A stretch of DNA of 64,000 bases from NCBI GenBank assembly GCA_036676495.1, contig JAKFCT010000067.1, positions 1-64,000 on the forward strand, given 5' to 3'. Each line of letters starts with the position of its first letter. The stretch's first letter is position 1. Under the pieces are notes generated by a model, which saw nothing but the letters and a program-made list of their open reading frames with translations, did no database searches and was not told the origin of the DNA. This stretch comes from Candidatus Sericytochromatia bacterium. Lineage in GTDB: Bacteria; Cyanobacteriota; Sericytochromatia; S15B-MN24; UBA4093. Positions 21,794 through 44,211 of the stretch are shown here, piece after piece. The position numbers and the translations under genes were made by a program.

Positions 21794-21866
21794 TCCGCGT
21801 TAGCTCAGTCGGTAGAGCGGGTGACTGTTAATCACTAGGTCGCTGGTTCGAGTCCAGCACGCGGAG
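21794..21866 (+). tRNA. tRNA-Asn(GTT)
   Basis: Acceptor TCCGCGT/ACGCGGA, D arm GCTCAGTCGGTAGAGC, anticodon loop CTGTTAA, T loop GTTCGAGTC. CCA not encoded. Confidence 0.97.
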
Positions 21867-21867
21867 C
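21825..21867 (+). repeat. attL core (43-bp direct repeat)
   Basis: ctgttaatcactaggtcgctggttcgagtccagcacgcggagc, identical to 37725-37767. Confidence 0.95.
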
Positions 21868-21919: not shown

Positions 21920-22014
21920 CGGCTCTTGCATCTTTTGCTTTACTTGCTCGCTTTACTCGACTGCGCCCCGTTTCCCGATGATCGGGAAACGGGGCGCATA
22001 TTTCGTAGGGGCGA

Positions 22015-22057
22015 AATCACAAGGTCGCTGGTTCGGATCCAGCACACGGTACTAGAA
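22015..22057 (+). repeat. Degenerate copy of tRNA-Asn 3' half (att scar) followed by its own terminator
   Basis: 37/43 identity to 21830-21872 by manual alignment; hairpin plus T tract at 22056-22098. Confidence 0.85.
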
Positions 22058-22151
22058 GGCAGAGGGGGCTCGAAACCCCCGAGCCCCCTCTGCCTTTTGC
22101 CTCTCGGCTTGACTACTTCTGCAGTTCTTGAATGCCGGCAGGAATTCCTAC

Positions 22152-23102
22152 CTACCCCTCGCCCGACACCTCCCTAAGCGGGAGATTCTGGAGCAATGTA
22201 CTGTCATCCAGTAGGCGATATAGAACGCTTGCTAACGCCAGCCACTCCAAGGCTCGCTGAGGATCGGTTGTGGCTTCAAGCCGGTGGGCCTTAGCATTCC
22301 GAAGCCCCATTACCATCCCCTTGAACATCCAGCCAAACCCAGTCTGTTCGTCTGGGTTGTCGGAGACCTTCAACAATGGCTGCTCACCGAGGAAGGCGGC
22401 GTTCATCAACTTGTCACCATCTAGCGCAACTCCAGTCCTAGCGTCCCTCGGCGTACCCGCCCGATCTCGGACCCGGGTTACCAGGTCAATGCAGGTAGAG
22501 AGGATGGCAGCATGGAGGTGCCCCTGGCCAAAAAGAGTTCCGGCGACTTCAATCACCCGGGGATGAAGTCCGTCCATCTGCAGCGAAGGCGCCATTTGGG
22601 TAGTCATAGGAATTTGATCGGCTTGCATCAGGTGCTCCAATCCCGCGTCTACAAGCGCTTCCTCCAGGTTAATTTCAGCAAGAGCATCCTTTTGGTTCCA
22701 ACTCTGAATCTCTGAAATCCGCTCATTGAATGCCTTCAGGACTGGCGACGAAAGCACGCCCTTCTTTTGAAGCATTCGGTCTTTCTCACGCTTGACCTTC
22801 TCAACAGCCAAGAAGCCCGCAATCTTGAGGAATGCAAGGCTTCTCCAGGACATACCTGCATCCTCGATGATCGCTCGATCATCTTTGAAGTTCTCAAGCT
22901 GTTCGTCGCCATACCGGACCATGTTCTCTACCCACCCGATATCTTCCTCGACTTCACGGGATGCTCTGCCGATTGCTAGCTGCACATCCCGGATCTCGAC
23001 TAAATGGGCAAGCAGGTCCCTCAGACCCTCGTTGAAGACCGCATACTTGTAGCGATAGAGGGCAAAGCCCAGGCTACCTGCGCGATTTCTTAGTACCGCC
23101 AT
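22152..23102 (-). CDS. TIGR02391 (Ymh-like) domain protein
   Basis: C-terminal LHPRV...GDKLMNAAF...EQTGF..MFKG....RNAKAH...ALEWLALAS. Alternative TTG start at 23132. Confidence 0.8.
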   Translation of the reverse strand: MAVLRNRAGSLGFALYRYKYAVFNEGLRDLLAHLVEIRDVQLAIGRASREVEEDIGWVENMVRYGDEQLENFKDDRAIIEDAGMSWRSLAFLKIAGFLAVEKVKREKDRMLQKKGVLSSPVLKAFNERISEIQSWNQKDALAEINLEEALVDAGLEHLMQADQIPMTTQMAPSLQMDGLHPRVIEVAGTLFGQGHLHAAILSTCIDLVTRVRDRAGTPRDARTGVALDGDKLMNAAFLGEQPLLKVSDNPDEQTGFGWMFKGMVMGLRNAKAHRLEATTDPQRALEWLALASVLYRLLDDSTLLQNLPLREVSGEG

Positions 23103-23133
23103 CCTCACACTCCACTTGATGTTCCTACTCAAT

Positions 23134-23240: not shown

Positions 23241-24344
23241 ATGATTTCCACAGACCTTCTAACGGTTGCCGAGGTCGCAGCCGACCTTCGGATCCACCCC
23301 GTCACGGTTCAGAAGTTCTGCCGCGAGGGCAAGTTGCCCTGCTCCAGGGTGGGGCGGAGCTACCGCATCCCCAGGGCGGCATTCGAGGAGTTCAAGCGGA
23401 GGTCCGAAGCCGGGCCAACGGCGACGAATATCAAGCCAACGCTAGAGCCTGAGTTGTCGGCGCTCGTCACCGCCTGGCTGCACGACATGGAGCACGGCCC
23501 CAGGCCCTGCTCCCTGGAGACAGTCAAAACCCACCGCCGCCACATGCACCGCTACGTCCAGGCCCTGCACGGAGACGATCCGAACGCCCGCGTCACCTAC
23601 CGGCAAGCCGCCTCGGAGACGGCGCTGCTCCGGGTGATGACGAGCATCCCCGTGGCGAAGTTCGCCACGCGTTATAACCTCTTCATGGCCGTGCTGAGCT
23701 TCTCCCGGTTCCTGGTGGGCCGGGGGCTGCTCGATGAGGCTGAGCGCGCGAGGATGAAGCGCCACAAGCCAAAGCGACTGACGCCACCAAAGAGGACGGT
23801 CCTCAGCTCGATGGACGAGGTCAACCGCTTCTTCGAGGCACTTTGGCAATCCGAGGCCCACACGACTTACGAGAAGACGCTGAACGCGGCGGCCATCGGG
23901 ACAATGGTCTTCGCGGGCCTCCGGGCCTCCGAGGTCGCCAACCTTGAGGTAGGGAACGTGGACCTCGCGAACCGCCTGATCCACGTCCACGCGGGGAAGG
24001 GCGGGAAGTCGAGGATCGTAGGCCTGAATCCCCGGCTCCAGGAGTCCATCGAGGCCTACCTGAGGGTCCGGCCGGTAGCGGCTTCACCCGAGCTGTTCCT
24101 GAGCGATCGGGGGGCTCCCCTCGACCGCGACAGGCTGAACAAGCGGGTCCGGCGCATCGCTAACAGGGCGGGGCTCGACGTGTCGTGCCATGGGCTGCGG
24201 AGGGCCTTCGGTACCATCAACGCCAACGCGGGGAAGAGCCTGAACCTCATCCAGCTCGCCCTAGGGCACAGCTCGCTGACCACCACACAGGCCTACCTGA
24301 TGGCCGACCAGCGCACTGCGGCCCAGGCAATGCAGGGGTGGTAG
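23241..24344 (+). CDS. Tyrosine integrase with N-terminal excisionase-type (HTH_17/MerR-like) domain
   Basis: N-terminal LLTVAEVAADLRIHPVTVQKFCREGKLPCSRVGRSYRIP; catalytic GLRASE, GKGGK, HGLRR, LGH and TQAY; RBS AAGGAGG. Confidence 0.93.
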   Translation: MISTDLLTVAEVAADLRIHPVTVQKFCREGKLPCSRVGRSYRIPRAAFEEFKRRSEAGPTATNIKPTLEPELSALVTAWLHDMEHGPRPCSLETVKTHRRHMHRYVQALHGDDPNARVTYRQAASETALLRVMTSIPVAKFATRYNLFMAVLSFSRFLVGRGLLDEAERARMKRHKPKRLTPPKRTVLSSMDEVNRFFEALWQSEAHTTYEKTLNAAAIGTMVFAGLRASEVANLEVGNVDLANRLIHVHAGKGGKSRIVGLNPRLQESIEAYLRVRPVAASPELFLSDRGAPLDRDRLNKRVRRIANRAGLDVSCHGLRRAFGTINANAGKSLNLIQLALGHSSLTTTQAYLMADQRTAAQAMQGW

Positions 24345-24509: not shown

Positions 24510-26168
24510 ATGACAAGCACCCCCCTGTTGCTCGTAGCCATAGTTTTAGCCCTCTGCCTAGCGGTAGTTGGATTCCTCGCCTTTCGTTGGCGGCGAGAGG
24601 TTGAGCGACTCATACAGCGCTACGCGGCGGTTGAGGATGTAGACGCTGAACGCCTGAGGGTGCTTGGCGAGATCGATAAACTCAAAGCCGAAATGGCTCG
24701 TTTCGAAGGGGACTACCAGCAGCGAAAAAACGAGCTAGTCGCTGATGCTGACGCCGAACGTCAGAGGATTCTAAGTGAGATTGATGCCTTCCAAGGCGAG
24801 ATGGCCCGTTTCGAGCGGGAGTACCAGAAGAGGAAAGACGAACTGGTCTCCGACGCTACGGCCGAGCGCCAGAAGATCCGCAAGGATGTCGATTCCCTGC
24901 AGGCTGAGATCTCAAAGCTCGACACTGACTTCTACAAGAAGAAGCAGGGGCTGACCCAGAAATACGACAAAGCGACGCGAAAGTACGAGAGGCTCCTGAA
25001 AGAGATCAACACCCTTGAGGAGTCCCTTGAGATGATGGACTTTGGCGTGTACCGCCCCCACTATGACTACACCACCTCTGAGCAGTACAAGCAGGCGCTC
25101 GAAGCCCTCCGTGAACGTGAGAAGAAGCTAATCCGAGACGAGCGCGCCGTTATCTGCCGCACGGAGTGGTCGGTCGGGGGGAGCAAGGCCGAGGGCCGGA
25201 AGATGACCAAGCAGACCCACAAGCTGATGCTGCGAGCCTTCAATGGCGAGTGCGACGCCGCGCTCGCCAAGGTCAGGTGGGACAACATCCTCAAGATGGA
25301 GGAGCGCATGCGCAAGTCCGTCGAGGCAATCAACAAGTCGGCCGAGGTCAACCAGAGCTACATAAGCGAGGAATTCGTCCGACTGAAAATCGACGAACTC
25401 CGCCTCACCCACGAATACCAGGAGAAGATCCAGGAGGAGAAGGAGGAGCAGAAGCGCATCCAAGAGCAGATTCGGGAAGAGCAGCGGGCCGCGCGGGAGT
25501 TCAAGAGGGCGCAGGAAGAGGCCGAGAAGGAAGAAGCCCGGTATGAGAAGGCCTTGGCGAAGGCGCGCGAGGACCTCCAGAAGGCCTCCGGAGCCAAGGT
25601 CGACGCACTTTCTGAGAAGATAGCCCAGCTAGAGGAGGCCCTGGCCAAGGCCGAGGAGAACAAGCAGAGAGCCATTTCGATGGCTCAGATGACCAAGGCC
25701 GGGCACGTCTACATCATCTCCAACATCGGGTCCTTCGGTGAGGACGTGTTCAAGATCGGCATGACTCGTCGTCTGGAGCCGATGGACCGGGTGAAGGAGC
25801 TCGGGGACGCCTCGGTGCCCTTCGAGTTCGACGTACACGCGATGATCTACTCCGAGAATGCCCCCGACCTAGAACGGCGCCTCCACAGCGAATTCGCTGA
25901 ACTGCGAGTCAACCTCGTGAACCCGCGAAAGGAGTTCTTCCACGTATCCCTAGCCAACATTGAGAAGTGGGCTCAACGAGAAAATTTCCCCATCACGTTG
26001 ACCAAGGTCGCAGAAGCCAGGGCATATCGCGAATCGCTAGAAATCCGTAAGAACGGACAAGCTAAGACGGTCGGCGATGAGTTCGCACACCAGGTCCCCA
26101 ACCTCTTCGATGATGAAGACGACGGCCAAGAAGTTCTGACCGGAAAAGCCGGTAAGCAGTCCGCGTAG
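24510..26168 (+). CDS. TM + coiled coil + DUF4041 + T5orf172/GIY-YIG protein (SNIPE/PD-lambda-1-like)
   Basis: N-terminal TM; KLMLRAFNGECD; GHVYIISNIGSFGEDVFKIGMTRRLEPMDRVKELGDASVPFEFDVHA; RVNLVNPRKEFF. Confidence 0.9.
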   Translation: MTSTPLLLVAIVLALCLAVVGFLAFRWRREVERLIQRYAAVEDVDAERLRVLGEIDKLKAEMARFEGDYQQRKNELVADADAERQRILSEIDAFQGEMARFEREYQKRKDELVSDATAERQKIRKDVDSLQAEISKLDTDFYKKKQGLTQKYDKATRKYERLLKEINTLEESLEMMDFGVYRPHYDYTTSEQYKQALEALREREKKLIRDERAVICRTEWSVGGSKAEGRKMTKQTHKLMLRAFNGECDAALAKVRWDNILKMEERMRKSVEAINKSAEVNQSYISEEFVRLKIDELRLTHEYQEKIQEEKEEQKRIQEQIREEQRAAREFKRAQEEAEKEEARYEKALAKAREDLQKASGAKVDALSEKIAQLEEALAKAEENKQRAISMAQMTKAGHVYIISNIGSFGEDVFKIGMTRRLEPMDRVKELGDASVPFEFDVHAMIYSENAPDLERRLHSEFAELRVNLVNPRKEFFHVSLANIEKWAQRENFPITLTKVAEARAYRESLEIRKNGQAKTVGDEFAHQVPNLFDDEDDGQEVLTGKAGKQSA

Positions 26169-27425: not shown

Positions 27426-29696
27426 CTAGGACCCAACCGAGGGGAAGCGCTCGCGGAGCATCCGCAGGGCGGCCCCGGGGTCCGGCAGCTGGACGGCGTT
27501 GGCCTTGTTGAAGCGACTGGAGAGCCTAACGTCCAGGCCCAGCGCCTTGCAGAACGCCTTGATGCGTTTGTTCATCGCGTGGTTGCCCCTCCTGCCGGGG
27601 GCCGGGGGGGCCCCTTCGAGGTGCTCAACGGCCAGGTTGCAGACGTGCTGGAGGGGGATCTCGGTGGCCTCGCCGCCCCGGTCCTCGATGGCCCGGGTGA
27701 GGCCCACGACGATCGCCTCGGTCTCGTCATCCAAACCCTGGGGCCCGATCGTTGCCTCGGCCTCCTCGCGCAGGGCCTCGAACATCTCCTCGCCCCCGAG
27801 GTGCTTGGCGACCGCGAGCAGCAGCCTCCAGAGGTCCGCGTGGCGGTTGGCCCCGACGGCCAGCGAGGGGTCGTGCAGGAAGGCGTTCCTGATGTCCATC
27901 CAGTTCCGTCCGGCCCAGAGGAGGAGCTGCCCCCGGAGCCACTGCCACTTTTCGAACTTCATCCCCACCTTGTTGAGGGCCCTGGGGTCCCCGGGGGGCA
28001 TCGGGCGCATCTCGATCACGATGGAGCGGGACCGGAGGGTCCGGGTCAGGCCCGAGAGGTTGGCGATGACCGTCGGTCCGAAGAGCCTGAAATACCGCAC
28101 CTTCTGCCCCTTCTCCACGAGGGGGTAGAAGGATTCCGAGCTATGGCGCGAGTTCAGAACCTCGATGATGTCGTCCTCGCTGCCGCCCGCGAGGTTCTCC
28201 TGCTCGTCCAGAAGGATCGTGCATCGGAGCGCGTCGGCCGTCCGGATGATCGAGGCCCGGCGGCTCTTGGAGGTCAGGATCGCGTTGAAGGCAAGACGAC
28301 TCAGGATCTCCATGAGCGTCGTCTTGCCGGAGTCCGGGGCAATCGAGTGCAGGGCGAGGAAGGGCACGCGGCGGGCGAGCGCGAAGACGTAGGTCATGGC
28401 GACGTAGGCCACGACGATCTGCGCGTGGACCGGCTTCTCGAACGCGACGTACTGCCCGACCACCGAGGCGATCCGATCCGCGAGGTCGGGGACCGGATCC
28501 TCCCCAGCGGCGAAGGCGTCCAGCCCCGCGTTGCTCCAACGGTACTCGCCCACGGGATCCGGCCAATCGATCATGCGGGCGGGGGTAAGCTCGGGCGGCA
28601 GCTCCTCGTCGTCGTACACGCTGATGCCGTCGCTCGTCACAGTCCGCGTGACGGCCACCTGGTTGACGATCTTTCGGCCCCTCGCATCCTTCTTGGGGTC
28701 GCCGGTCTTGGGATCGATCTCGGGGCGGGACTCCAGGAACGCGGTGGAGACGATCATGCGCTCTTCGTCGAAGCTCTGGCTCAGGTCCACGAGGCGAACC
28801 GACTCAGGGGCGTAGTCATCCCGGGGGCCCTTCAGGCGCTTGTGGTCCTCGGCGACCGCCCGGGCGAGGTCGTCGGGGAGCAGTGCCAGATCGCCAACAT
28901 TGCGCGCCCTGGCGAGAAAGGCGTCTCGATCGGGTTCCATCACCGCGTGGAGGGCGTCGTGGTTCCTACTGAAGATGTGGGTCAGGTTGTCGAGCCTGTT
29001 GTCGCCGCCGCTTCCGTTTCGGTGATGCTCTTCGTGGGAGGCCTCGAACACCCGGTAGCTCACGCCGTCCCCAACGACCGCCACGAGTTTGTGGAGCGCG
29101 GTGCTGTAGCTGGCGCTGTCGGGGAGCTTGCCTGCGCAGAGCTCAGCGAGCTCCGGAATCGCCAGGACCTTGGTGGTCGTAACTTGGAGGTAGTGGGTCC
29201 GCTTACCCCGCATGACACCGACCGGGATCATGCCGAGCGGCCAACCATTGCGCGCGACCAGCAGGGTGAGATCCAGGCTTTCGGACCAGCGCAGCCACAG
29301 CGAGATCCCGCTAGGCTCGTCGGCACACAAGAAGCCGGTGTGGATCCAGAATCGGTCGGACTCAAGGCCCGCGATGGAGAGGGCCTTGGCGAGGCTCCTG
29401 AGGCTTACGAGCGATGCCCACCGGGTCAGCTTCCCCTCAAGGCGCTTGGCGATCGTCGGGTGGTTCGTAAAGACCTCGGGCGCCGCGAGCGTCGTCGAAA
29501 GGTCACCGGGGCGCCCCTCGGTCACGATCTCGAAGGACCACTCCTCGTAGCCTTCGGCGACGACAGTGGCGGTAGATTCGCCGTCCAAGGTGATCGTGAG
29601 GGCATCCGACTCGTAAACGGGAATCGAGGCCCACTGGTCGGCCCCATCCCCACCGGCGGTGGGCTGATGCCCCACGCCGTCCTTTACTTCATCCAT
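27426..29696 (-). CDS. DUF3631-like P-loop NTPase (putative replication protein) with HNH-like motif
   Basis: Walker A APDSGKTT, Walker B ILLDE, IIEVLNS, LRSRSIVIEM and NRHADLWRLL; HHRNG..GDNRLDNL upstream. ATG 29696 after AAAGGAAG. Confidence 0.75.
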   Translation of the reverse strand: MDEVKDGVGHQPTAGGDGADQWASIPVYESDALTITLDGESTATVVAEGYEEWSFEIVTEGRPGDLSTTLAAPEVFTNHPTIAKRLEGKLTRWASLVSLRSLAKALSIAGLESDRFWIHTGFLCADEPSGISLWLRWSESLDLTLLVARNGWPLGMIPVGVMRGKRTHYLQVTTTKVLAIPELAELCAGKLPDSASYSTALHKLVAVVGDGVSYRVFEASHEEHHRNGSGGDNRLDNLTHIFSRNHDALHAVMEPDRDAFLARARNVGDLALLPDDLARAVAEDHKRLKGPRDDYAPESVRLVDLSQSFDEERMIVSTAFLESRPEIDPKTGDPKKDARGRKIVNQVAVTRTVTSDGISVYDDEELPPELTPARMIDWPDPVGEYRWSNAGLDAFAAGEDPVPDLADRIASVVGQYVAFEKPVHAQIVVAYVAMTYVFALARRVPFLALHSIAPDSGKTTLMEILSRLAFNAILTSKSRRASIIRTADALRCTILLDEQENLAGGSEDDIIEVLNSRHSSESFYPLVEKGQKVRYFRLFGPTVIANLSGLTRTLRSRSIVIEMRPMPPGDPRALNKVGMKFEKWQWLRGQLLLWAGRNWMDIRNAFLHDPSLAVGANRHADLWRLLLAVAKHLGGEEMFEALREEAEATIGPQGLDDETEAIVVGLTRAIEDRGGEATEIPLQHVCNLAVEHLEGAPPAPGRRGNHAMNKRIKAFCKALGLDVRLSSRFNKANAVQLPDPGAALRMLRERFPSVGS

Positions 29697-29760
29697 TCTT
29701 GTTTCTTCCTTTCTATGGTGACGCCCGGGCGACCGGAAAGCCGTCCGGGTGTTGTGATTG

Positions 29761-30048
29761 CTACGAATTCCGCAGGAGGTCGAGAAGCTCCTCGACCGGG
29801 AAGTCACCGGCGCTGAGCTCGCCGCCCGAGACGGCCCCCGCCAACCTGGCGGCGATGGTGGTGTGATCCAGGGCGTCGGCGGAGACCACCAGCTCCGGCG
29901 GGGCGGGGATCCAGCTCGTCCAGGTCTCGTACGTCTGAGGCGGCTGTCCCTCGGCCTCGACAACCAGGGCATCGCCAGAGAGCGAGAGCCTGAGCCCATC
30001 GCGGTTGAAGATCGTCCGATCCTTTCGGTTCTCGTCGTTTCCGGCCAT
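29761..30048 (-). CDS. Small hypothetical protein
   Basis: ATG with AGGA RBS, within a minus-strand gene run. Confidence 0.6.
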   Translation of the reverse strand: MAGNDENRKDRTIFNRDGLRLSLSGDALVVEAEGQPPQTYETWTSWIPAPPELVVSADALDHTTIAARLAGAVSGGELSAGDFPVEELLDLLRNS

Positions 30049-31012: not shown

Positions 31013-31954
31013 TCACAAAGTTAGGTTTTGTAAGTCCCTCACGAGCGCTTCTTGATCCACCTTCACGTACAGCATGGTGGTTGACACAGATCCATGGCCT
31101 AGAATTTGCTGCAACTTCGGAAGAGGAATCCCTCTCTCGTTTGCACATGCTGACGCAAACGACCTTCTAAGATCATGCGGACGAACCTTGATACCCAGGC
31201 TCTTGCTTAGGCGGGCAAATCTCTTCACGAGAAGGTCTCTGGAGAGGGGCTTGCCCGTAGGGCCTAGGAAGAAGCAATCCGACGTCGATTCCGGTCGGTA
31301 GCGGACGTACAGCCTCAGGAGCGGCATCAGGTTGGCGCTGATGCCAAGAAGACGCTTGCGCCCACCCTTGCCATTTTCGACGCGGATCAGCCCCCGATCC
31401 AAGTCGATCTCAGAAGTACGCACACTACAGAACTCGGAGGCTCGCAACCCCGTGAAACAGAGAACGCAAAATACGACGCTATTGATGAGTCTTTCCAGGT
31501 CGTCGTACGCCCCCACGTCGAGTAGCTTACGGATGGCGTCCTTCATCTGATCGACCTCCAGATACGGCTGATGAGGCTGGCTCTTCGCCTTGAAGCTCAG
31601 CGACAGGATATCCTCGGCCTGCTCCCTACCGATGATTCCCACGTCCCAGAGGAACCGGGCGAACGTCTTCACGGCGTAGATCAGCTGGCGCCTCGTAGAG
31701 ACCTGCTCCACCGGGATCTGGCACAGGACGCGAATCAGGTTCGCCCTGGTGACCAGTTCGTGCAGGGACTTCTCGCCATCCGCCCCTGCCATCCGGAGGA
31801 ACTTCCGAAGGAAGCGGAGGTAGCCCGTCCTGGTGTCCTCGCGAAGGGGCTTGGGGCCGTTTCGCATGTACTCATAGAATTCGGAGATCAGGTGGAGCTG
31901 CGTCGCCATCAGGAGCGCGATGAAGAGCCCCAGGATCGCAGAGTTCAACGGCAT
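31013..31954 (-). CDS. Tyrosine recombinase (paralogue of 23241-24344, without the Xis-like HTH)
   Basis: GLRASE, GKGGRKR, HDLRR, LGHGS and TMLY. Confidence 0.92.
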   Translation of the reverse strand: MPLNSAILGLFIALLMATQLHLISEFYEYMRNGPKPLREDTRTGYLRFLRKFLRMAGADGEKSLHELVTRANLIRVLCQIPVEQVSTRRQLIYAVKTFARFLWDVGIIGREQAEDILSLSFKAKSQPHQPYLEVDQMKDAIRKLLDVGAYDDLERLINSVVFCVLCFTGLRASEFCSVRTSEIDLDRGLIRVENGKGGRKRLLGISANLMPLLRLYVRYRPESTSDCFFLGPTGKPLSRDLLVKRFARLSKSLGIKVRPHDLRRSFASACANERGIPLPKLQQILGHGSVSTTMLYVKVDQEALVRDLQNLTL

Positions 31955-32732: not shown

Positions 32733-33650
32733 ATGCCGAATGTCGTCCGTCTCGGCCTCCCCGGGCGCTCCGACCGCCCGCTGGCCGAGCACATCGAGGA
32801 CTTCCTCGCCGACATGCGGGCGGCCGGGAAATCCGACGCCACGCTTCGGAACTACGAGCGCGACGCCCTGGCGCTCGCCGTCTGGTACCGGGGCGACCTC
32901 GGGGCGGTGACAACCCCCGTGCTCCGGGAGTACCTTCGGGGGCTCGACCACCTAGCCCCGGCCACCCGCGCTAGGCACAGGGTCTCCATCCGGGCCCTGT
33001 TCAGGTGGGCCGCCGAGATGGGGCTGGTCGAGGCCGATCCCGCCGAGCAGCTGCCCGGGGTCAAGGTCCCCGAGGGCCAGCCGAGGGCCCTCCAACCCGG
33101 CGAGGTCGCCCGGATCCTCACCGTCATCACCGACAGGCGCGACCGCTTGCTCTTCCAGCTCATGGCCGACACCGGGGTACGGGTCTCCGAGGCTCTCTCC
33201 GTCCGCCTTGAGCGCATCAGGCTCGCGGCCCAGGAATTGACCGTCGTCGGCAAGGGCAAGCGAGAGCGCACCGTGTACCTCATCCAGACGGAGGCCCTCG
33301 GGCTGCTGCGGCGCTACCTCCGCCACCAGGGCTGGCTTGCCAAGGACGGGGAGACCATCACCGAGAAGGGGCTGCTCTTCCGCCCCGATGCTGCCAAGCA
33401 GAGAGCAGGGAAGGCCGGGCTGCCCATCCATTACACGACCATTCAGCAGCGTTGGAAGGGCTATTGCCAACTGGCCAAGGTAGACGCCACGGTCCACCAA
33501 TTACGCCATACATTCGCCACTCGGCTAGTCAACGAGGGGAAGCCCTTGGAAGTGGTCCAGAAAGTCCTCGGACACCGAAACCCAGCCACCACCCAGCGCT
33601 ACGCGGTCGTCAGCGACGAGACCGTGCGGCGTGCCCTCGCAGACGACTGA
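32733..33650 (+). CDS. XerC/D-like tyrosine recombinase
   Basis: N-terminal SAM-like domain; TGVRVSE, GKGKRER, HQLRHTFAT, LGH and TQRY; RBS AAGGAGG. Confidence 0.93.
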   Translation: MPNVVRLGLPGRSDRPLAEHIEDFLADMRAAGKSDATLRNYERDALALAVWYRGDLGAVTTPVLREYLRGLDHLAPATRARHRVSIRALFRWAAEMGLVEADPAEQLPGVKVPEGQPRALQPGEVARILTVITDRRDRLLFQLMADTGVRVSEALSVRLERIRLAAQELTVVGKGKRERTVYLIQTEALGLLRRYLRHQGWLAKDGETITEKGLLFRPDAAKQRAGKAGLPIHYTTIQQRWKGYCQLAKVDATVHQLRHTFATRLVNEGKPLEVVQKVLGHRNPATTQRYAVVSDETVRRALADD

Positions 33651-35446: not shown

Positions 35447-36094
35447 CTAAGGCGCAAGCGTAGGGGCTACGGATCTATCTATGAGCTTGCCTTGAGCGTG
35501 AGCAGCTTTAATTACATTTCCGTTGGCCGTAAAAACTTGAATGCCGGGCACAGTTACGTAGTCACCATCATCAGTAACGACTTGAAGGATCCCTGCTCTA
35601 TTCATAGTTTCGATCATGAACAAGTCGTATCCATCCAGCAATTGAGTTTCAAAACGGTCCAGCGCCTTATCTGAGAGCGTGGAATCAATCGTGATATCCA
35701 ACTCGCTTGCCATAGACTTAACTTGCGTCCATGCAAGATTCACTTCATCATAAACATCTTTTCGCAAGTGAGGGAGGTTGTGGCGAAACTCTTTAGGCTT
35801 TACAGGGCCATTTGCCTTCTCATAAATTTCTCGCTCTGTCTTTTCAATTAAGTGTGATAATTCAGACAATGAAAGAGCAATATGATGAAGTTTCGATTTA
35901 TTACTCAAAGCTTTCCGCATATACGCAGGATAAATTCTAGCTTGGTATCCCGAGTAGGGTGAAACACTTACACTTGCCTTGGTGTAAGTCATCCAGTACC
36001 AAACGTTGGTATCGACCCAGAAAGTATCACTTGGCTTTGGGATATCCGAGCGGATATCCACAACGTCTGCGACGATAGTATAATTTACGGCCAC
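35447..36094 (-). CDS. PIN domain ribonuclease
   Basis: Acidic PIN active site: VDTNVW, LSEL, DGYD and VTDDGDY. Confidence 0.88.
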   Translation of the reverse strand: MAVNYTIVADVVDIRSDIPKPSDTFWVDTNVWYWMTYTKASVSVSPYSGYQARIYPAYMRKALSNKSKLHHIALSLSELSHLIEKTEREIYEKANGPVKPKEFRHNLPHLRKDVYDEVNLAWTQVKSMASELDITIDSTLSDKALDRFETQLLDGYDLFMIETMNRAGILQVVTDDGDYVTVPGIQVFTANGNVIKAAHAQGKLIDRSVAPTLAP

Positions 36095-36097
36095 GCG

Positions 36098-36460
36098 TTA
36101 TAGCGCCTCTTGCTCATTAATTACTTTATCAAGTATCTGCCTGTGCTCGGAATTTGCATAATACTCGGCAGCATTCCTTAGTACTAAGTCGAGCACGCTT
36201 CTACCATCTGCTCGGATATTAGATACAATGAGGCGTTCCCGTAAATCTACCGGGTCAACATCTTTAAGAAGGCGACCAATTGCCGAGTTGAAAAATGGGG
36301 AAGCAAATATTGTCACGCCCAAGAAATCAATCTCGACGCACTTTCCAGCAATTATGTCGGGCGCTATTAAGTCGTAGACTTTATTTCCATCTTCAAGCGT
36401 AATAGCATGCTCGCCGACAACTTTGAGCAGTTCCATTTTCATCAGAATCATCTCATTCAC
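36098..36460 (-). CDS. STAS-like (DUF4325) protein
   Basis: VEIDFLGVTIFASPFFNSAIGRL, with a Ser at the usual STAS phospho-acceptor region. Confidence 0.85.
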   Translation of the reverse strand: MNEMILMKMELLKVVGEHAITLEDGNKVYDLIAPDIIAGKCVEIDFLGVTIFASPFFNSAIGRLLKDVDPVDLRERLIVSNIRADGRSVLDLVLRNAAEYYANSEHRQILDKVINEQEAL

Positions 36461-37350
36461 TAGAAAAGCGGCTGGTTCACAACCTCGGAAGCAAAGTGGT
36501 AATAGGCCTCATTGCAAGTTAACGAAATGTTAAATATCGTCCCTTGGAAGCTACTCTGCCTCGCCTCGTAGATCTCTTGGCTGCTATCTATTCTAGCATA
36601 GCCATCGTTGCTATAAACCTCTAGGCTGCCCGAGTTCGCTTTAACAAAGGCTTTCAGCAAATCTAAACCGAGACCTCTGCCAATGCCGCCAGAGTTGGTA
36701 GAAGCCCCCCTCTGAAAAGCCCAACGCATGCAGCTATCCGACCTCAAGCCTGTGGCGCCTTGTAGTTGAGCGAAATAGTTCCTGACTCTGGTCGGAATTC
36801 CTATACCAAAATCCACTACGGATAGCTTCAACTCCCCCATTTGTGGGAAGTGCTGCCCACAACTGTAGATTCCGACTTGTGAGTGCCCATGTTCGGCAGC
36901 GTTGGCGTAAATCTCCCAAACCCTACCTACAATGGCATCTCCTAATAATGGACTAATGTGGACCCAGCCACGTCCAAGCCAACTCACCTTTAGAAAATTC
37001 ACAATATCGCTCGCGACAAGCACTCTATCTTCGCGATAAGGGACAGAATTTCCGCTATTGAAACTTACAAAATTCCCGAAAGCCGGCATGAAACCATTTT
37101 TCATCAGAGTATTACGGACACTTACGTGAAGAGTATCCCAGAGAAAGTGGACTCTCCCACCACGAGATTCCACTAGGCGTGCTAATCCCCCTAAGAATGC
37201 AACAGCATTAGGGCGCAAGAAGCGACATATGGAAAAATCAAACCTGTACTCTTCGAACCAGAAATCGCATTGACTAGCAACGAAAAAAAGGCGGTCAAAG
37301 TCGGACGATTGATCGTTGATGGTTGGAATATAAACAGTCTTCAATGTCAA
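36460..37350 (-). CDS. RsbW/SpoIIAB-like HATPase_c protein with N-terminal STAS-like region
   Basis: N box WEIYANAAEHG, G1 VVDFGIGIP and G2 GRGLGL; no HisKA His box; N-terminal DFSICRFLRPNAVAFL. Confidence 0.85.
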   Translation of the reverse strand: MTLKTVYIPTINDQSSDFDRLFFVASQCDFWFEEYRFDFSICRFLRPNAVAFLGGLARLVESRGGRVHFLWDTLHVSVRNTLMKNGFMPAFGNFVSFNSGNSVPYREDRVLVASDIVNFLKVSWLGRGWVHISPLLGDAIVGRVWEIYANAAEHGHSQVGIYSCGQHFPQMGELKLSVVDFGIGIPTRVRNYFAQLQGATGLRSDSCMRWAFQRGASTNSGGIGRGLGLDLLKAFVKANSGSLEVYSNDGYARIDSSQEIYEARQSSFQGTIFNISLTCNEAYYHFASEVVNQPLF

Positions 37351-37724
37351 CCCTCAGCCAGGCTACTTATGAGCGCTCTTGTATCAACATCAAGATTACT
37401 TTGGATCCGATCATACACCAAGCAAGCGTCTTTATGCGCTTGGTTCTGGCACTGCACTTGAGCATGTGAGACATCCGAATCAAGGTTCAGAGAGTTCATC
37501 GCAGACCTCGTGGTTGCAACCATCGACACCTTTGTCGTCACAATCGTCCTCAAGCCATTCTTGAAAATGTTCGACGGAATGTCCGGCAAGGACTGGCGCC
37601 CATGCTGACTCGAAAAGCCCACACGTTTGGACTCAGGCCAGACACCATGACAAGTAAAAAATAAAGTCGAAAACCGGTGTACAGGTCTAATAGACGCCTG
37701 ACGCTTTGCTTTGCTACCTAAGTC

Positions 37725-37767
37725 CTGTTAATCACTAGGTCGCTGGTTCGAGTCCAGCACGCGGAGC
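37725..37767 (+). repeat. attR core (43-bp direct repeat of tRNA-Asn 3' half)
   Basis: Identical to 21825-21867; followed by a terminator at 37770-37813. Confidence 0.95.
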
Positions 37768-37931
37768 CTAAAAGCAGAAGGGTCCCGGGAATCCCGGGAC
37801 CCTTCTGCTTTTTGCCTTGGCCTCGCTTCCCTTGCATCTTTCACCCCTCTAGTCTTTTCCGACGCCCCTCTGTACTGTCCGGACTCCTCCTCGTTGTATC
37901 GTGAGGAGGTCACGCGCCGGAGGATGATGCC

Positions 37932-38171
37932 ATGACGGCAAAAGCAGGTGAGCGGGCCCTGGAAACTGGCACCTTCCACTGCGACCTTTGTAGTCATACG
38001 GTTCGGGTGGAAAAGGGCCAGGTCATCCCGCCATGCCCATGTGGCGGTGGGTACGGAAGCCGAACGAACGAGCCCAAGCCGCCCGAACCGGAATTTCGGG
38101 CAGCGATGCCTGAACAGGCGGATCAGAAGCGAAACCTCGAGCGGCTCACGCGACGGAGCGATTCTCTATGA
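37932..38171 (+). CDS. Small zinc-ribbon protein
   Basis: KAGE..ETGTFHCDLC...IPPCPC; RBS GGAGG; stop overlaps the next ATG. Confidence 0.7.
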   Translation: MTAKAGERALETGTFHCDLCSHTVRVEKGQVIPPCPCGGGYGSRTNEPKPPEPEFRAAMPEQADQKRNLERLTRRSDSL

Positions 38172-39529
38172 GCATGCGCGTTGCCATCGCAGGGGGCGGG
38201 CTAGCCGGTCTAACCTGCGCCAAGTACCTGGTCGATGCCGGATGCGATGTGCAGCTCTATGAGGGCATGCCCTTCCTAGGCGGACGGGCATCGACGTATC
38301 GGGATCCGGACGGGGAGTGGGTTGAGCAGGGCCTACACCTGTTCTTAGGTACCTACTCTGAGTTCAAGGCCTTGCTGCGTTCAATCGGGCAGGCGCCGGA
38401 CGAGGTCCTCTGCTGGATGGACGAGATTCGCTTCCAGGACCCCGAGGGCCCACAGGCGCGCTTCGGGATCAATCCCTTTAGCAATCCCGTCAAGACAGCA
38501 CTGAGCTTCCTCGGCCAAAACGATTACCTGGATCCGCTGGACAAGATCTCGCTCTTGCCGCTCGTCGCACCAGCCCTCTTGGACTTCGATTACCTACAGC
38601 GAGAACATGACGACAAAACCGTTACCGACTGGTGGCGACGCCTGGGCGGCACCCCCAACGTCCTGGAGCGATACCTGCGTCCGTTCTGCCGAGCCATCCA
38701 GTTCACCGATCCGGATGACTTCTCGGCCTTCAATTTCCTCGGCTGGGTCCACCATACGGCATATGATCTCGCCCATGCCTATGCCGGTGGGTATCGCGGC
38801 CCTCGCGACGAGACGATCTTCAAGCCACTCGCCTCTTACCTGGAACAGCGAGGTGCATTGCTTCGCACCGGGGTTCGACTCGAAGGGGTCGACTTCGATG
38901 TCGCGCGGGGCCGCGTGGCAGCCTTTCACCTTTCCGACGGCAACCGGATCACGGCAGATGCCTTCGTCCTTGCGCTGCCTGCCTGGTCAGTGGCGCCGAT
39001 CCTGCCTCCAGCCTTGCGCGAAGATCCGTTCTTCTCGAAGATTGCCAGCCTCCCCATCTCTCCGGCGATCTCCGTCCAGCTCTGGTTTGATGGGAGCGTC
39101 ATTGATTCTGCCGATTACACGCTCGTGGCCCGCTCCATTGCCTCTGTCTACCAAGATCAATCGACGAACGCCTATCCGGATCCGCGAGGGAGCCGGGTCT
39201 CGATCATCGTCTCACCGGCTGATGATTGGCTCGACCTTGATGACGCAGAGATTCTCGACGAGGTCCTTAGGGTGCTCGAACAGGTGCAACCGCCCGTCCG
39301 AGGGGCAACCTTGCGTAAGTCCGTGGTCCTGAAACACCGGTCCCACTTGATCCGCCCCTTGCCAGGAGCAATGTCCCAGCGGCCCACCCAGCATACTCCA
39401 GTACCGAATCTTTTCTTAGCTGGCGATTGGACCCAGCAAGACTACTTCGGAAGTCAGGAGGGAGCCGTACGGAGCGGCAAGAGCTGCGCGGACACCTTGC
39501 TGGCGAGATGGCTGGATGTGTCGTCCTGA
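38168..39529 (+). CDS. FAD-dependent oxidoreductase, phytoene/zeta-carotene desaturase-like
   Basis: GGGLAGL, GGRASTYRDPDGEWVEQGLHLFLG and NLFLAGDWT.Q.Y..SQEGAVRSG. Confidence 0.85.
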   Translation: MSMRVAIAGGGLAGLTCAKYLVDAGCDVQLYEGMPFLGGRASTYRDPDGEWVEQGLHLFLGTYSEFKALLRSIGQAPDEVLCWMDEIRFQDPEGPQARFGINPFSNPVKTALSFLGQNDYLDPLDKISLLPLVAPALLDFDYLQREHDDKTVTDWWRRLGGTPNVLERYLRPFCRAIQFTDPDDFSAFNFLGWVHHTAYDLAHAYAGGYRGPRDETIFKPLASYLEQRGALLRTGVRLEGVDFDVARGRVAAFHLSDGNRITADAFVLALPAWSVAPILPPALREDPFFSKIASLPISPAISVQLWFDGSVIDSADYTLVARSIASVYQDQSTNAYPDPRGSRVSIIVSPADDWLDLDDAEILDEVLRVLEQVQPPVRGATLRKSVVLKHRSHLIRPLPGAMSQRPTQHTPVPNLFLAGDWTQQDYFGSQEGAVRSGKSCADTLLARWLDVSS

Positions 39530-40433
39530 CTCCCTCGGTCCAGCCTCGGATCGGCAGCCAGTCTGCAGGCCGTCGGGACTCCCGAAGATCCGATCGTCTT
39601 CCAGGCCCACCCCGGCGACGAGCGTTCCGCCTTCTGGGACGGGGCAAGTTTTATCCATTGGCTTCCGAGAGCCGGCTCGAGCACGTCACGATCCGGCACG
39701 GCGGGTCCTCGGCACGGGCGTATTCCGGAGCGCTGCACTTCCTTGGGACCACGGCCACGCTGAAAGGCGTGAGGATCGAGTCCTCGGAGCTAGGAAATTC
39801 CATGCGTAGCGAGGGCTCGAAGGGCTATCCCATGGGCTACTTCTACCAGGGTGCCGGCAAAGATGAGGGCTCCTTCGGACAGGGAGATGCCAAGAACCGC
39901 GACGATATCTTCGAGCGCCCCTACCTCTGACAAGACGTCGAGGCATCTACCCCCGAACGCGCTCCTGAAGCCATCATCCCCTTCCGAATAAGTCGCCTTG
40001 ATCGCCCTCGATGGGTCAGGCGGCGTTCGTTTCCCGCAGGATCTGGAAATCGGCTAGAAGTAGCACCAAGCCCGGCTCTCGTAGCGCTTGGCATGCTGCT
40101 GCTGAGATAGAGCATTGGGCTCGACGCCCTAGTGCTTGGCGAATTCGAACAAGGGGTAAACCAGTGCGGTGTAATACTGATTTGATAACGAAGGAATTTT
40201 TGGTAGTCTGATTGCTAGGTACTGGGTTTCCCCTGTGGTGGGGTTGCGGCAATCGGGCGCCAGGCGGAAAGCCACCCAACAGTTTCAAGCGAGCGTCCCA
40301 TTCTCCTGGCATTTTGACTACGCCGGGAGCCGCGATGTCCCGAGGCCTGAAGCTTTTTGCACCAAGCCGGTGGACGTCAGGGCCCCTGGGACTGGTACGG
40401 TCCGGAGTGAAATCTCCCCTTGGAGTGGATGGA

Positions 40434-41225
40434 ATGAAGCGACTCTTCCTGCTCTTGCCCTGGCTCTTGATTCAGGGATTCGCTCCCCTGGGAGACCTCC
40501 CCGACGACCTCAGCGATCAGATTCGCCCCTTCTATGCACGGCGCCAGGTGGTGGAGGCTCTCTCCCTACTCAAAGAACGCGCCAAGACCGATCCGAGAAA
40601 CTTCGGGATGCAACTGGAACTGGGGCGGTTAGAGGCCTACCGTGGGGAAGATGCCAAGGCACTCGAGCACTTCAAGGCAGCCCTGGCGCTCCGACCCGAA
40701 TCGATCGAAGCCCAGGTGCTGGAGGCCCAGTCCTGGAACGATCAAGGCGCGTACAACCAGACCATTGCCTTGCTGGAAAAGCGAATCCCGGAATGGGAGC
40801 GGCAACATGAGCATCCCCGCTGGCTAGCCAGGGCACTCACGGTCCTGGCCCACGCGCAGGCCCTCAAGGCCAGCAAGGAGGGCCTGGTTGCCATGATGGC
40901 CTACGGCCCCCAGGTTCAGAGCAACCTGGAAAAGGCACTCCCACTCGATCTCAATGGGGCCCGAACGCGCTACATGCTGGGCCTCTATTACTTGCAGGTC
41001 CCCGCCTTCGCCGGTGGCGGCAAGCAAAGGGGAATGGAGTTCATGCGCCGCGCCGCTCAACTCGATCCGGACGATCACGTGGTGCGGGAAGGGTACATCC
41101 GGCAGGTTCTCGAGCAAGAAGGCAAGGAGGCCGCCAAGAAATTGTTCGAAGCCTTCGTCCGGGATTTTCAGTCGATGTCGCGCGTCATGGAGCGGGTTTC
41201 CGATCTGAAGGCGCGACTGCAGTAG
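40434..41225 (+). CDS. Exported TPR-repeat protein
   Basis: Signal peptide and TPR-like helices (ALEHFKAALALRP; YMLGLYYLQVP..AGG). Confidence 0.75.
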   Translation: MKRLFLLLPWLLIQGFAPLGDLPDDLSDQIRPFYARRQVVEALSLLKERAKTDPRNFGMQLELGRLEAYRGEDAKALEHFKAALALRPESIEAQVLEAQSWNDQGAYNQTIALLEKRIPEWERQHEHPRWLARALTVLAHAQALKASKEGLVAMMAYGPQVQSNLEKALPLDLNGARTRYMLGLYYLQVPAFAGGGKQRGMEFMRRAAQLDPDDHVVREGYIRQVLEQEGKEAAKKLFEAFVRDFQSMSRVMERVSDLKARLQ

Positions 41226-41255
41226 CCCCAACCTCTCAATCATCGGGTAACCAGC

Positions 41256-42185
41256 ATGTTTCAAATCGGATGGCGGATCGCGCTCCTCACCTTGGCCTAC
41301 CTCGCTTGCTTTGTCGTGGCCAACGGGACCGCGGTGCAGCCCTATCTACCGCAAAGCTACTCCGAACTCATCTCGCAACAGGACGCAGGGCGTGCCGGCC
41401 TGGCCATGCTCGCGGTGAGCCTCCTCAACACGGCCGTCGTCTCGCACCTCGTGCTGCGATCCAAAGCCGGAGGCTGGCGGCTCAGTTCGGCGATCTTTGT
41501 CATCCTTTACGGTTCGATGACCTTCATGGCCCAAATCGAGACGGCGGCCTTTCCTCCCGTCGCCAACCGGCTTCCGCCAGGCATGCTGGGCGGGCTATTC
41601 CTGATGGGCCTCTTGCTCGCCGCCCCTTATTCCCTGTTGGCGGTCTGGGTTCTGGGCAAGTGGAAGGAGAAGGCGCCAGAGCCTCCGAATCGCTTGCCGC
41701 CGCTACACGAGTGGGCGTGGAAGCTCCCGCTGATCGCGGTCCTGTATGCCACCCTCTACTTCACCTTCGGCTACTACGTCGCATGGAAGTCTCCCGCCGT
41801 CCTGGCCTACTACGGGGGCACGGATCCTGGCAGCCTCTGGCTGCAACTCGAGCACGTCATGCGCACGACCCCTTGGATGCCCTTCTTCCAGTTGCTGAGA
41901 GGCGGGTTATGGCTGGCGATCGCCCTTCCCGTCATTCGACTGATTAAGGCCCCTTATTGGGAAATCGCCCTGGCCGTCGGGCTTTCCTACTCGGTGCTCA
42001 TGAACTCCCAGCACCTGTTCGCCAATCCGTTCATGTCGGATGCCGTCCGGTACACCCACCTGGTGGAGACCGCCAGCTCCAACTTCATCTTTGGCGTTCT
42101 GGCGGTTCTCATCCTCTTTTGGACGCCCGGTCGGCTTGGGAAGGTGACTAACGCTGGTCACCCTTCCCAACTCGGCAGCCGCTAG
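41256..42185 (+). CDS. Multi-pass membrane protein
   Basis: About 8 hydrophobic segments. Confidence 0.75.
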   Translation: MFQIGWRIALLTLAYLACFVVANGTAVQPYLPQSYSELISQQDAGRAGLAMLAVSLLNTAVVSHLVLRSKAGGWRLSSAIFVILYGSMTFMAQIETAAFPPVANRLPPGMLGGLFLMGLLLAAPYSLLAVWVLGKWKEKAPEPPNRLPPLHEWAWKLPLIAVLYATLYFTFGYYVAWKSPAVLAYYGGTDPGSLWLQLEHVMRTTPWMPFFQLLRGGLWLAIALPVIRLIKAPYWEIALAVGLSYSVLMNSQHLFANPFMSDAVRYTHLVETASSNFIFGVLAVLILFWTPGRLGKVTNAGHPSQLGSR

Positions 42186-42386
42186 GGGGCCGGCTTATCC
42201 AGGGGTTCGAGACAGCAGGCCCGCGTGAACGAGACGATGAGTGTTTACAGCTTATCGACCTTTACCTCGCCGCGATGCCCCTTAATGTCCCTCGGGGCAA
42301 TAAGAAATAGCCCGCACAATTCCGGTCGCACCGAAAGGCTATCTGCCCTATCTTGGCCAGTTCTGATTACCAAGGCTAACTAGATC

Positions 42387-42421
42387 CTGTTAATCACGAG
42401 TTCGCTGGCACAAGTCCAGTA
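42387..42421 (+). repeat. Degenerate att-like copy of tRNA-Asn 3' half
   Basis: 29/35 identity to 21825-21859 by manual alignment. Confidence 0.75.
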
Positions 42422-42620
42422 ATTAGCGCAAGCGTCCTCACCATCGGGTAAAGCGCCCTTTTTCTTGGGAAGTTCGGACAACAGAATTGCCTGAATAACA
42501 TTTTTCGGAATATAGATTGACTCGCCTTTAAGAAAGTGCTTGACAAGCACGAATTTCACAGGATATATCAAACACAAGCTCTAGATCATGTTATTTCACC
42601 TGAAGGGAGAGAATCAGGCC

Positions 42621-42914
42621 ATGCAGGTAACAAATATTAACGGTACAAGCGACAACACTTGCAAATGCATCAGCTGGCTAGACCACTGGAAGACTTACAG
42701 CAAATCTTCTCTGCCCTCATATTGCCCTGAATCCAGCTGCTTGCAAAAGCCTGAAGTTGGCGCACATGTTCAAAAAAGTGGGAGCACTGACAAGGCCTGG
42801 TACATTATCCCCCTTTGTAAAACACACAACGGAAAAACAAATCAGTCGCTTACGGTGAGTGACTCAACCGTACTTGCCCCCGCAAACGTAAGTAATACAT
42901 GCGGAAGGAACTAG
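42621..42914 (+). CDS. Small Cys/His-rich protein (His-Me finger-like)
   Basis: SWLDHW, C....C, VGAHV and YIIPLCKTHN; AT-rich. Confidence 0.7.
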   Translation: MQVTNINGTSDNTCKCISWLDHWKTYSKSSLPSYCPESSCLQKPEVGAHVQKSGSTDKAWYIIPLCKTHNGKTNQSLTVSDSTVLAPANVSNTCGRN

Positions 42915-43139
42915 GAGCGGATTTGAATCCAGATTGCGGATCTAAGAGGCGCTTCATCGAGAGATGGGGGGCCTTTTTTGTTGGGCAGTCGGGTCAAAAT
43001 AGGCTTGGGGGCAACAGGCTGGATGAAGCCAGTATAAGGACAAAATAGATTTGGACGCACCGAAGGGTAGTCAGAATGGGCATATAAATGTTGTTGCAGA
43101 ACAGGCGTCTCCTTATATGTGTAAAGTAGGAAAAACCAA

Positions 43140-43730
43140 ATGCCAACTCTAGGAAGTCTGCTTGACTTGGATCGGTGTCCACACTGTGTGACTCACCGCC
43201 CAACGCTTAAATTACTCTGGCAGGGCGATACGAACGACTACCTAGGCCAAAACGAACGACAATGGGGAGCGTATGCGTGCACAGCCTGCGGCGGCGTAGT
43301 CATTGCCCAAGGCAAATGGGGAGGTGGGGTTGTAAGATTTTTCCCTGGGCAAGATTTGAGCGTCGACGCAGCCATCCCAGATAGAGCACAAAAATACCTT
43401 CAGCAAGCGATTGATTGCCTTGCTGCGCCATCTGGCGCTGTGATGCTTGCATCAAGCGCCGTGGACGCAATGCTTAAGGTAAAGGGGTATACCGAGGGTA
43501 ATCTTTATAGTCGGATTGAAAAAGCTCGAGACGACCATTTGATCACACCGGAAATGGCTGAGTGGGCACACGAAGTCCGCCTCGAAGCAAATGGGCAACG
43601 GCATTCGGACATGGATGATCCCCTACCAGATCTTCACCAAGCACGAAAAGCCGTGGAATTCGCGCAAGCCCTTGGTGAATTTTTATACGCTCTTCCCTCC
43701 CGGGTCGAAAAAGGGAGGAATCTCCCCTGA
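43140..43730 (+). CDS. Zn-ribbon + DUF4145 (HEPN-like) protein
   Basis: CPHC and CTAC; GNLYSRIE...IT..MAEWAHEVRLEANGQRH. Confidence 0.85.
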   Translation: MPTLGSLLDLDRCPHCVTHRPTLKLLWQGDTNDYLGQNERQWGAYACTACGGVVIAQGKWGGGVVRFFPGQDLSVDAAIPDRAQKYLQQAIDCLAAPSGAVMLASSAVDAMLKVKGYTEGNLYSRIEKARDDHLITPEMAEWAHEVRLEANGQRHSDMDDPLPDLHQARKAVEFAQALGEFLYALPSRVEKGRNLP

Positions 43731-44211
43731 GCATTTTCTGATCTTCGCGTCCATAACTACGCACAAAACAAAGAGCAAATTGAATAGTTCATGCGCATTT
43801 TGGCCGAGGCAGCAATTCACTTCGGCTATGTAATTGGGGGCAGGTCAAAAAGGACCTAGGGTATCTCTGAGGCCCTTCGACTTTTCTCCTCTCGGCCTTG
43901 CACCTAATGTCAGGCTCGCGCGCATTATGCCCCACTCGTCTCGTCACGCTTCCTTCAAAGTAAGGAACAGAGGGAACGCCGCCTCGTCCCACCCAGACGG
44001 CGCGCGGAATTCGGGCAACTGCGCAGTGCCTGCCACTCCAAGTCCAGCTCCTTGGGACCGCGCATTGGGCATGGCCCGCACCCGGCTGACGCAAATGCTG
44101 GCGTTTACCGAACGATGCTTCAGGGGCATAATTTGCTAGTCCCATGATTGCCCGGTGGCGCCTCAGGGCGCTCGTTGCAACCCGTTGATACCCAGTGAAA
44201 GGACCGCGACC

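Follow-up and report, generated by a model that had tools for sequence, protein, structure and literature searches.

An intact VapKSC operon on a tRNA-Asn-integrated element in a Candidatus Sericytochromatia genome

A cluster of three genes in the genome of a Candidatus Sericytochromatia bacterium raises the question whether it encodes a new type of toxin module or a further copy of a known one. In the original prediction, the genes were read as a kinase, a STAS protein, and a PIN nuclease that may form a three-component toxin-antitoxin or abortive-infection module, controlled by phosphorylation or ATP state and possibly novel. The window analyzed here is the whole stretch of 64,000 nucleotides (contig JAKFCT010000067.1, positions 1 to 64,000). 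The genes and their presumed control regions are as follows:

36460..37350, minus strand: vapK, open reading frame of 296 aa with a STAS domain (residues 1-93) and a SpoIIAB-like GHKL kinase domain (residues 100-282)
36098..36442, minus strand: vapS, STAS (DUF4325) antitoxin with a C-terminal helix, 114 aa from its likely start, predicted phospho-acceptor Ser48
35447..36094, minus strand: vapC, PIN-domain RNase toxin by homology, 215 aa
35379..35401, minus strand: terminator-like hairpin directly 3' of vapC, a consensus match only
37351..37724, minus strand: presumed promoter region from attR to vapK, 374 bp, 49% GC

The locus almost certainly belongs to VapKSC, a system described by Chambers et al. 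(EMBO J 2026; PMC13373217) with a crystal structure (9Z7O) and 289 listed instances; the literature found under this name consists of that paper and its own preprint. The proposed phosphorylation-gated module thus coincides with the VapKSC model as published in PMC13373217, and the suggestion of novelty falls, because the system has already been named and crystallized. As one more copy of a named, crystallized, and phage-tested system, the locus adds little by itself.

The order of the genes (kinase, STAS, PIN) is the same as in VapKSC, the domains are the same, and all three proteins are homologous to their VapKSC counterparts over their whole length. Searches against Pfam assigned gene 1 to HATPase_c above the cut-off (E = 4.2e-7), bearing out the GHKL ATP-binding boxes noticed earlier, and gene 2 to DUF4325 (E = 5.5e-13), while the match of gene 3 to PIN stayed below the cut-off (E = 0.005). 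Against the Escherichia chains of PDB 9Z7O, gene 2 matched VapS (E = 1e-15, residues 12-117) and gene 3 matched VapC (E = 4.8e-49, residues 1-205, with Asp28 aligned on Asp28). A PDB search with VapK returned nothing below E = 0.24, and no VapK has been solved; therefore, an E. coli vapKSC copy was taken as reference. The VapK of this copy differs from the VapK in Table S2 of PMC13373217 at 25 of 297 positions (~92% alike, counted by eye), and all computed identities refer to this near-identical E. coli copy, whereas the PMC13373217 VapK itself was compared by eye. Identity between the window proteins and their E. coli counterparts is no higher than 30-45% (VapK 45%, 131/288; VapS 30%, 33/111; VapC 45%, 93/207). 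The window copy also differs in its location, an integrative element at tRNA-Asn in a host with 66% GC, and in being known from sequence alone; like published instances, it lies near other defense genes.

The operon is intact and is a horizontally acquired VapKSC. As originally observed, the triad is more AT-rich than its host: its GC content is 45.3% compared to 65.9% for the genome, equally low values occur in 0.13% of 3983 equal-sized genome windows, and the GC3 of the three genes is 0.43-0.50. Models of the triad are absent from PADLOC 2023 and NCBIfam, which says nothing on novelty because these libraries predate or omit VapKSC. A Foldseek search retrieved generic GHKL proteins only, and a weak PADLOC match of gene 1 to DrmA (E = 9e-4) was rejected as reflecting the shared ATPase domain.

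The three genes are closely packed on the minus strand, as first described, and the 3-bp gap between vapS and vapC stands (a 1-nt overlap is found at this junction in 69 of 80 triads). The reported 1-nt TAG/GTG overlap of genes 1 and 2 is probably a start-calling artefact. The open frame of gene 2 spans 36098-36460 and would encode 120 aa from the GTG at 36460. Met1 of E. coli VapS aligns to the ATG at 36442, a column with Met in 71 of 81 relatives, and this start gives a 17-nt gap, a protein of 114 aa, and the numbering Ser48; gaps of 13-17 nt between the kinase and STAS genes occur in 50 of 80 triads. For vapK, a GAGG motif 7 nt upstream points to the second TTG at 37344 as the probable start. 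A promoter scan yielded matches at chance level (5 found, 3.8 expected), and the 374-bp stretch upstream of vapK showed no similarity to sequences in 85 related loci and no hsdS remnant. An ORF of 91 aa at 37347-37622 had no match and was treated as non-coding.

The VapK model (mean pLDDT 87) confirmed the proposed STAS-like N-terminus, as residues 1-93 fold as a STAS domain resembling anti-sigma antagonists (Z 9.3, rmsd 2.3, 89 aligned). The kinase domain is nearest to SpoIIAB (Z 14.7, rmsd 2.3, 136 aligned) and also resembles RsbW (Z 12.2), with UsfX likewise among the nearest solved folds. No DHp helix pair separates the STAS and kinase domains in the model, no Pfam match to HisKA was obtained for gene 1, NCBIfam kinase matches remained far below their cut-offs, and the sole invariant His of VapK, H154, is part of the N-box helix. 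The absence of a phospho-His box was thus read correctly, and a classical two-component histidine kinase, which would have a DHp domain and a phospho-accepting His, was rejected. Phe44, Glu146, Asn150, His154, Asp180, and Gly182/184/226/228 agree with the family; the Phe of the ssDNA site is shared by 81 of 85 relatives and the N-box Asn by all 82 ungapped ones.

In PMC13373217, VapK residue numbers run five ahead of the sequence in its own Table S2, and the position of F54A needs checking. With a single offset of 5, the published F54, N160, and K180/K181 would be F49, N155, and K175/K176 of Table S2, which align to Phe44, Asn150, and Gln170/Met171 of the window VapK. The latter pair stands in contrast to the two loop lysines drawn beside ssDNA in the published model. 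Since 45 of 82 relatives likewise have no Lys or Arg at these two positions, the lysines are not family-wide.

Three longer VapK relatives (P0051, P0055, and P0111) were considered as kinase-STAS fusions and rejected, as their 100-120 extra residues are N-terminal extensions. The two that were scanned gave no Pfam match for these residues, and the extensions of P0055 and P0111 contain Cys pairs suggestive of metal binding.

Gene 2 is, as predicted, a DUF4325 STAS protein whose Ser in the ASPFF motif is conserved, with Ser or Thr at position 48 in 79 of 80 ungapped relatives. The acidic site of the PIN domain, Asp28, Glu78, Asp154, Asp157, and Asp175/176/178, is likewise present in the window VapC and occupies invariant columns in the relatives. 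Hence, the residues that we equate with the positions whose mutation abolished phage protection in VapKSC (Asp28, Ser48, and Phe44) are all kept here. The only Ala at the phospho-acceptor position among the 80 relatives occurs in a VapS on a MAG contig labelled as archaeal (L002:1501-1845), where kinase and toxin look intact despite this exchange. A candidate counterpart of the window VapC is the PIN.4 cluster of a PIN-domain catalogue (Matelska et al. 2017; PMC5499597), which is coupled there to DUF4325 genes and stands as a catalogue entry only.

The triad is highly conserved. GTDB genomes yielded 151 confirmed kinase relatives, of which the 80 best were analyzed further, and the whole triad was present in all 77 untruncated kinase-anchored genome loci (76 by tblastn, the 77th with a divergent STAS ORF), the remaining three ending at a contig edge. 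Nine of the 80 genome loci carry strain names that appear in Dataset EV3 of PMC13373217. A single-sequence scan of viral contigs found nothing, whereas an alignment-based scan found five viral-collection loci, with the kinase in all, a STAS gene in four (tblastn), and a STAS-like ORF in the fifth. A PIN-anchored metagenome set comprised 68 loci with 60 distinct genes; wherever the upstream DNA was long enough, the STAS gene preceded the PIN gene (60 of 60 loci), with a kinase gene in 48 of 54. The other six loci (L108, L122, L146, L151, L154, and L158; five distinct genes) are vapS-vapC pairs that keep the Ser and have no adjacent kinase gene; a kinase elsewhere in these genomes is possible. 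In the host group, a PIN profile search of 40 related genomes (64-100% complete) showed no vapKSC. No match was obtained in PLSDB plasmids (72,556) and INPHARED phages. The window DNA itself matched no E. coli genome, and a Pseudomonas copy used as DNA query hit 2 of 5426 E. coli genomes (a short DNA match only). In a quick tree, E. coli VapK fell among the same relatives, and the position of the window VapK was unsettled, with a long terminal branch (0.6).

For the system of Escherichia sp. E4736, PMC13373217 reports that VapC is toxic and its D28A variant is not, and that VapS binds VapC in a 2:2 complex and neutralizes its toxicity. Deletion of the VapS C-terminus or the exchange S48E abolishes rescue, and S48E also abolishes binding (PMC13373217). 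The operon conferred ~2-log protection against phage Bas42, which was lost with D28A, S48A, or VapK F54A, and the proposed VapC target is rRNA or tRNA (PMC13373217). In the same account, VapK was insoluble and VapS phosphorylation, not seen directly, is supported by the phosphomimic and the Ser-to-Ala genetics, while ssDNA binding by VapK is predicted only and accompanied by the loss of protection in the Phe mutant. For the related CapK, activation in vitro by ssDNA of ~20 bases and direct Ser phosphorylation were shown (PMC13373217).

By homology with these proteins, the window operon would work as follows. VapS would use its STAS domain to bind the VapC dimer (2:2) and its C-terminal helix to block the RNase, as is known from the Escherichia orthologues. 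The trigger would be ssDNA arising from phage infection or DNA damage, which could activate VapK by binding at Phe44, between its STAS and kinase domains, as shown for CapK. VapK would then phosphorylate Ser48 of VapS, as SpoIIAB does SpoIIAA, whereupon VapS would let go and VapC would cut host RNA, so that growth stops and phage spread is limited. We consider it very likely that the core of this scheme applies here, namely that VapS blocks VapC, VapK phosphorylates Ser48, and VapC is thereby freed. The role of ssDNA as the trigger is probable by analogy with CapK, and it takes the place of the ATP state that had been suggested as a means of control. Consistent with phosphorylation of VapS, a model of the kinase-STAS complex with ATP scored 0.78 compared to 0.02 for the best control (a mark reached by 116/157 solved and 2/215 mismatched pairs), which may owe to its likeness to SpoIIAB-SpoIIAA. 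At least 77% of contacts recur between model runs, the partner has a pLDDT of at least 84, and Ser48 touches the VapK ATP-lid residues 227, 228, and 231, a contact that is a property of the model and no evidence of binding. The trigger of VapK, the RNA target of VapC, and the real physiological role are the questions for the field, and the divergent window copy may offer a second system in which to study them, given the insolubility of the Escherichia VapK (PMC13373217).

The mechanism has two nearby relatives. CapK-CapS, as described in PMC13373217, is alike in that a STAS-GHKL kinase targets a conserved Ser in its STAS partner, but differs in the N-terminal HTH of CapK, the winged-helix repressor domain of CapS, and the output, which is promoter de-repression. 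We rejected the assignment of the window genes to CapK-CapS, as the gene 2 product, of 114-120 aa, aligns with VapS over its whole length and the model of gene 1 begins at the STAS strand. In the SpoIIAB and RsbW switches, a sigma factor held by the kinase is released, and the system is reset by a PP2C phosphatase. SpoIIAB-SpoIIAA and RsbW-RsbV share the kinase fold and a Ser-bearing STAS substrate with VapKSC, in which, by contrast, the STAS protein holds a toxin and the kinase has a STAS domain of its own; VapKSC is also not known to have a phosphatase.

The operon is cargo of an integrated element, which has the following features:

21794..21867, plus strand: tRNA-Asn(GTT), the integration site, holding attL at 21825-21867
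22152-23132, minus strand: gene at the attL end (54% GC) for a protein of 326 aa that ends in a Ymh domain (PF09509)
23241-24344, 31013-31954, and 32733-33650: three tyrosine recombinases, of which one is a fusion with an excisionase-like HTH_17
24510..26168, plus strand: PD-lambda-1/SNIPE homologue, 552 aa (PADLOC PD-Lambda-1, E = 3.6e-173; Pfam DUF4041 and T5orf172)
27426-29999: 857-aa protein with a weak DUF3631 match
37725..37767, plus strand: attR, identical over 43 bp to the 3' end of tRNA-Asn

A perfect 43-bp direct repeat (21825-21867 and 37725-37767) bounds the 15.9-kb element, and vapKSC adjoins attR, so that its original placement at the attR end of a tRNA-integrated element was right. 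The 21-base core of the repeat occurs three times in the window against 0.01 expected. The element also encodes an HTH_3 repressor, and no capsid or conjugation families were found among the 14 ORFs scanned in its region. In the probable source run, the element was recovered as one contig of 15,917 nt with no differing letter and at a depth equal to that of the flank. The sequencing runs X2, X6, and X7 had no coverage of the operon, which proves nothing alone. The PD-lambda-1/SNIPE homologue has an N-terminal hydrophobic segment and lies 9.3 kb from vapC in the same element. According to the part of PMC13190303 concerned, SNIPE constructs were built from a PD-lambda-1 plasmid, and the layout of DUF4041 plus membrane anchor is common to both. 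The Ymh-domain protein, which has weak matches to PADLOC PD-Lambda-3_B and Aga_HEPN, is a possible second defense cargo at the attL end. Together with the PD-lambda-1/SNIPE homologue, the matches to type I RM, Dsr2, IetAS, and SoFic adjoining relatives of the operon support a defense context.

Published protection by VapKSC is weak and narrow: the review file of PMC13373217 gives it as under 2 logs, against five of the BASEL phages 14-69, in an unreplicated screen. The same switch could therefore serve as a general DNA-damage dormancy or element-maintenance module with phage protection as a side effect. The authors of PMC13373217 themselves call the line between immunity and stress response blurred, and 64% of their 289 instances have no PADLOC match within 10 kb. 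A toxin-antitoxin pair could also stabilize an integrative element such as this one with its three tyrosine recombinases. We nevertheless regard this reading as rather improbable, as protection depends on all three key residues (PMC13373217), the element also carries a known defense gene, relatives adjoin the defense matches listed above, and the 72,556 plasmids, on which one would expect addiction modules, gave no match.

Alternatively, the window VapK could be weakened or dead, with VapS and VapC acting as an ordinary type II toxin-antitoxin pair. This is favored by three unusual substitutions at conserved positions, namely Ala152 in place of a near-invariant Phe (Ala in 0/82 relatives), a difference from the E. 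coli protein as well, Phe119 in place of a near-invariant Tyr (Phe in 0/83), and Ala25 in place of a near-invariant Trp (Ala in 2/84), and also by the long terminal branch and the natural vapS-vapC pairs that have no adjacent kinase gene. The vapK frame is, however, intact with every catalytic GHKL residue present, the VapK model is confident, the complex model sets Ser48 at the ATP lid, and the probable source run shows the element as one contig free of differing letters; loss of the kinase is thus very unlikely. The likeness of the kinase to SpoIIAB, RsbW, and UsfX would also fit an RsbW/RsbV-type partner switch for a distant sigma factor with an unrelated PIN gene next to it, which is extremely improbable given the STAS orthologue crystallized bound to VapC (9Z7O), the invariable placement of the STAS gene ahead of the PIN gene in the metagenome loci, the 1-nt overlap of the two genes in most triads, and the lack of a sigma factor nearby. 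Sigma factor and PP2C families were found neither among 58 window ORFs scanned (a mechanical, non-exhaustive pick), in agreement with the first reading, nor among the commonest identified neighbor clusters of the relatives.

Clustering of 825 neighbor ORFs yielded three dominant families, which PADLOC identified as type I HsdS, HsdM, and HsdR. Directly upstream of vapK and co-oriented with it, hsdS was found in 28 of 85 loci, the intergenic distance being between -4 and +4 nt in 22 of these; the gene order in coupled loci is hsdR-hsdM-hsdS-vapK-vapS-vapC. A profile built from 21 neighbor HsdS proteins placed hsdS directly upstream of vapK also in 12 of 40 metagenome loci outside the profile (duplicates included). 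In a quick tree, the coupled loci are spread over several VapK subclades and phyla, although kin are not independent, and the 85-locus sample is biased to close relatives, namely uncultured Desulfobacterota, Nitrospirota, and cyanobacteria. Defense genes cluster anyway. In Dataset EV3 of PMC13373217, RM_type_I lies within 10 kb in only 24 of 289 instances by our own count. For capKS, the same paper gives 88 of 443 as directly downstream of an R-M system, and the passages that raise R-M coupling do so for CapKS, without discussing VapKSC. The terms hsdS and hsd do not occur in the main text and review file of PMC13373217, and nothing on the link turned up among the further literature listed; the preprint and supplements may mention it.

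We tentatively suggest that in the nearest subfamily vapKSC could form the tail of a type I restriction operon, as a second line that reads restriction output or failure and responds with abortive infection, though the odds are against it. The signal would be ssDNA from HsdR cutting or from phage anti-restriction, and the weak protection by the lone Escherichia operon could reflect a missing partner. No RM genes are found beside the window vapKSC, and the coupled RM genes had no close match in the host genome, with one weak methyltransferase match. The window copy would then be a detached version paired with SNIPE, which could supply broken DNA. The coupling of hsdS and vapK bears on whether restriction activity primes a toxin.

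Comparison with other assemblies indicates a mobile setting. In one contig, from another study, 21869 is linked to 37855, the junction expected of an unoccupied site. A third study contributed a contig that tracks the element to 35357 and continues with 1315 other letters, which suggests that vapKSC may occupy an exchangeable position next to attR; both observations come from single contigs of other strains. Synteny with a same-genus genome is regained only at 43893; therefore, this tRNA is an insertion hotspot that has taken up additional DNA, apparently through stacked insertions. The DNA right of attR (37768-43892), which includes a 50%-GC DUF4145 gene (43140-43730), is largely absent from the same-genus genome. 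A third, degenerate copy of att (22010-22103) is located 185 bp past attL, and a similar hairpin follows each copy. Elsewhere, the vapS-vapC pair of L151 begins ~220 bp after hsdS, and the E. coli vapKSC copy (L088:4682-6541) is located at a prophage end, beside baseplate and tail-fibre genes.
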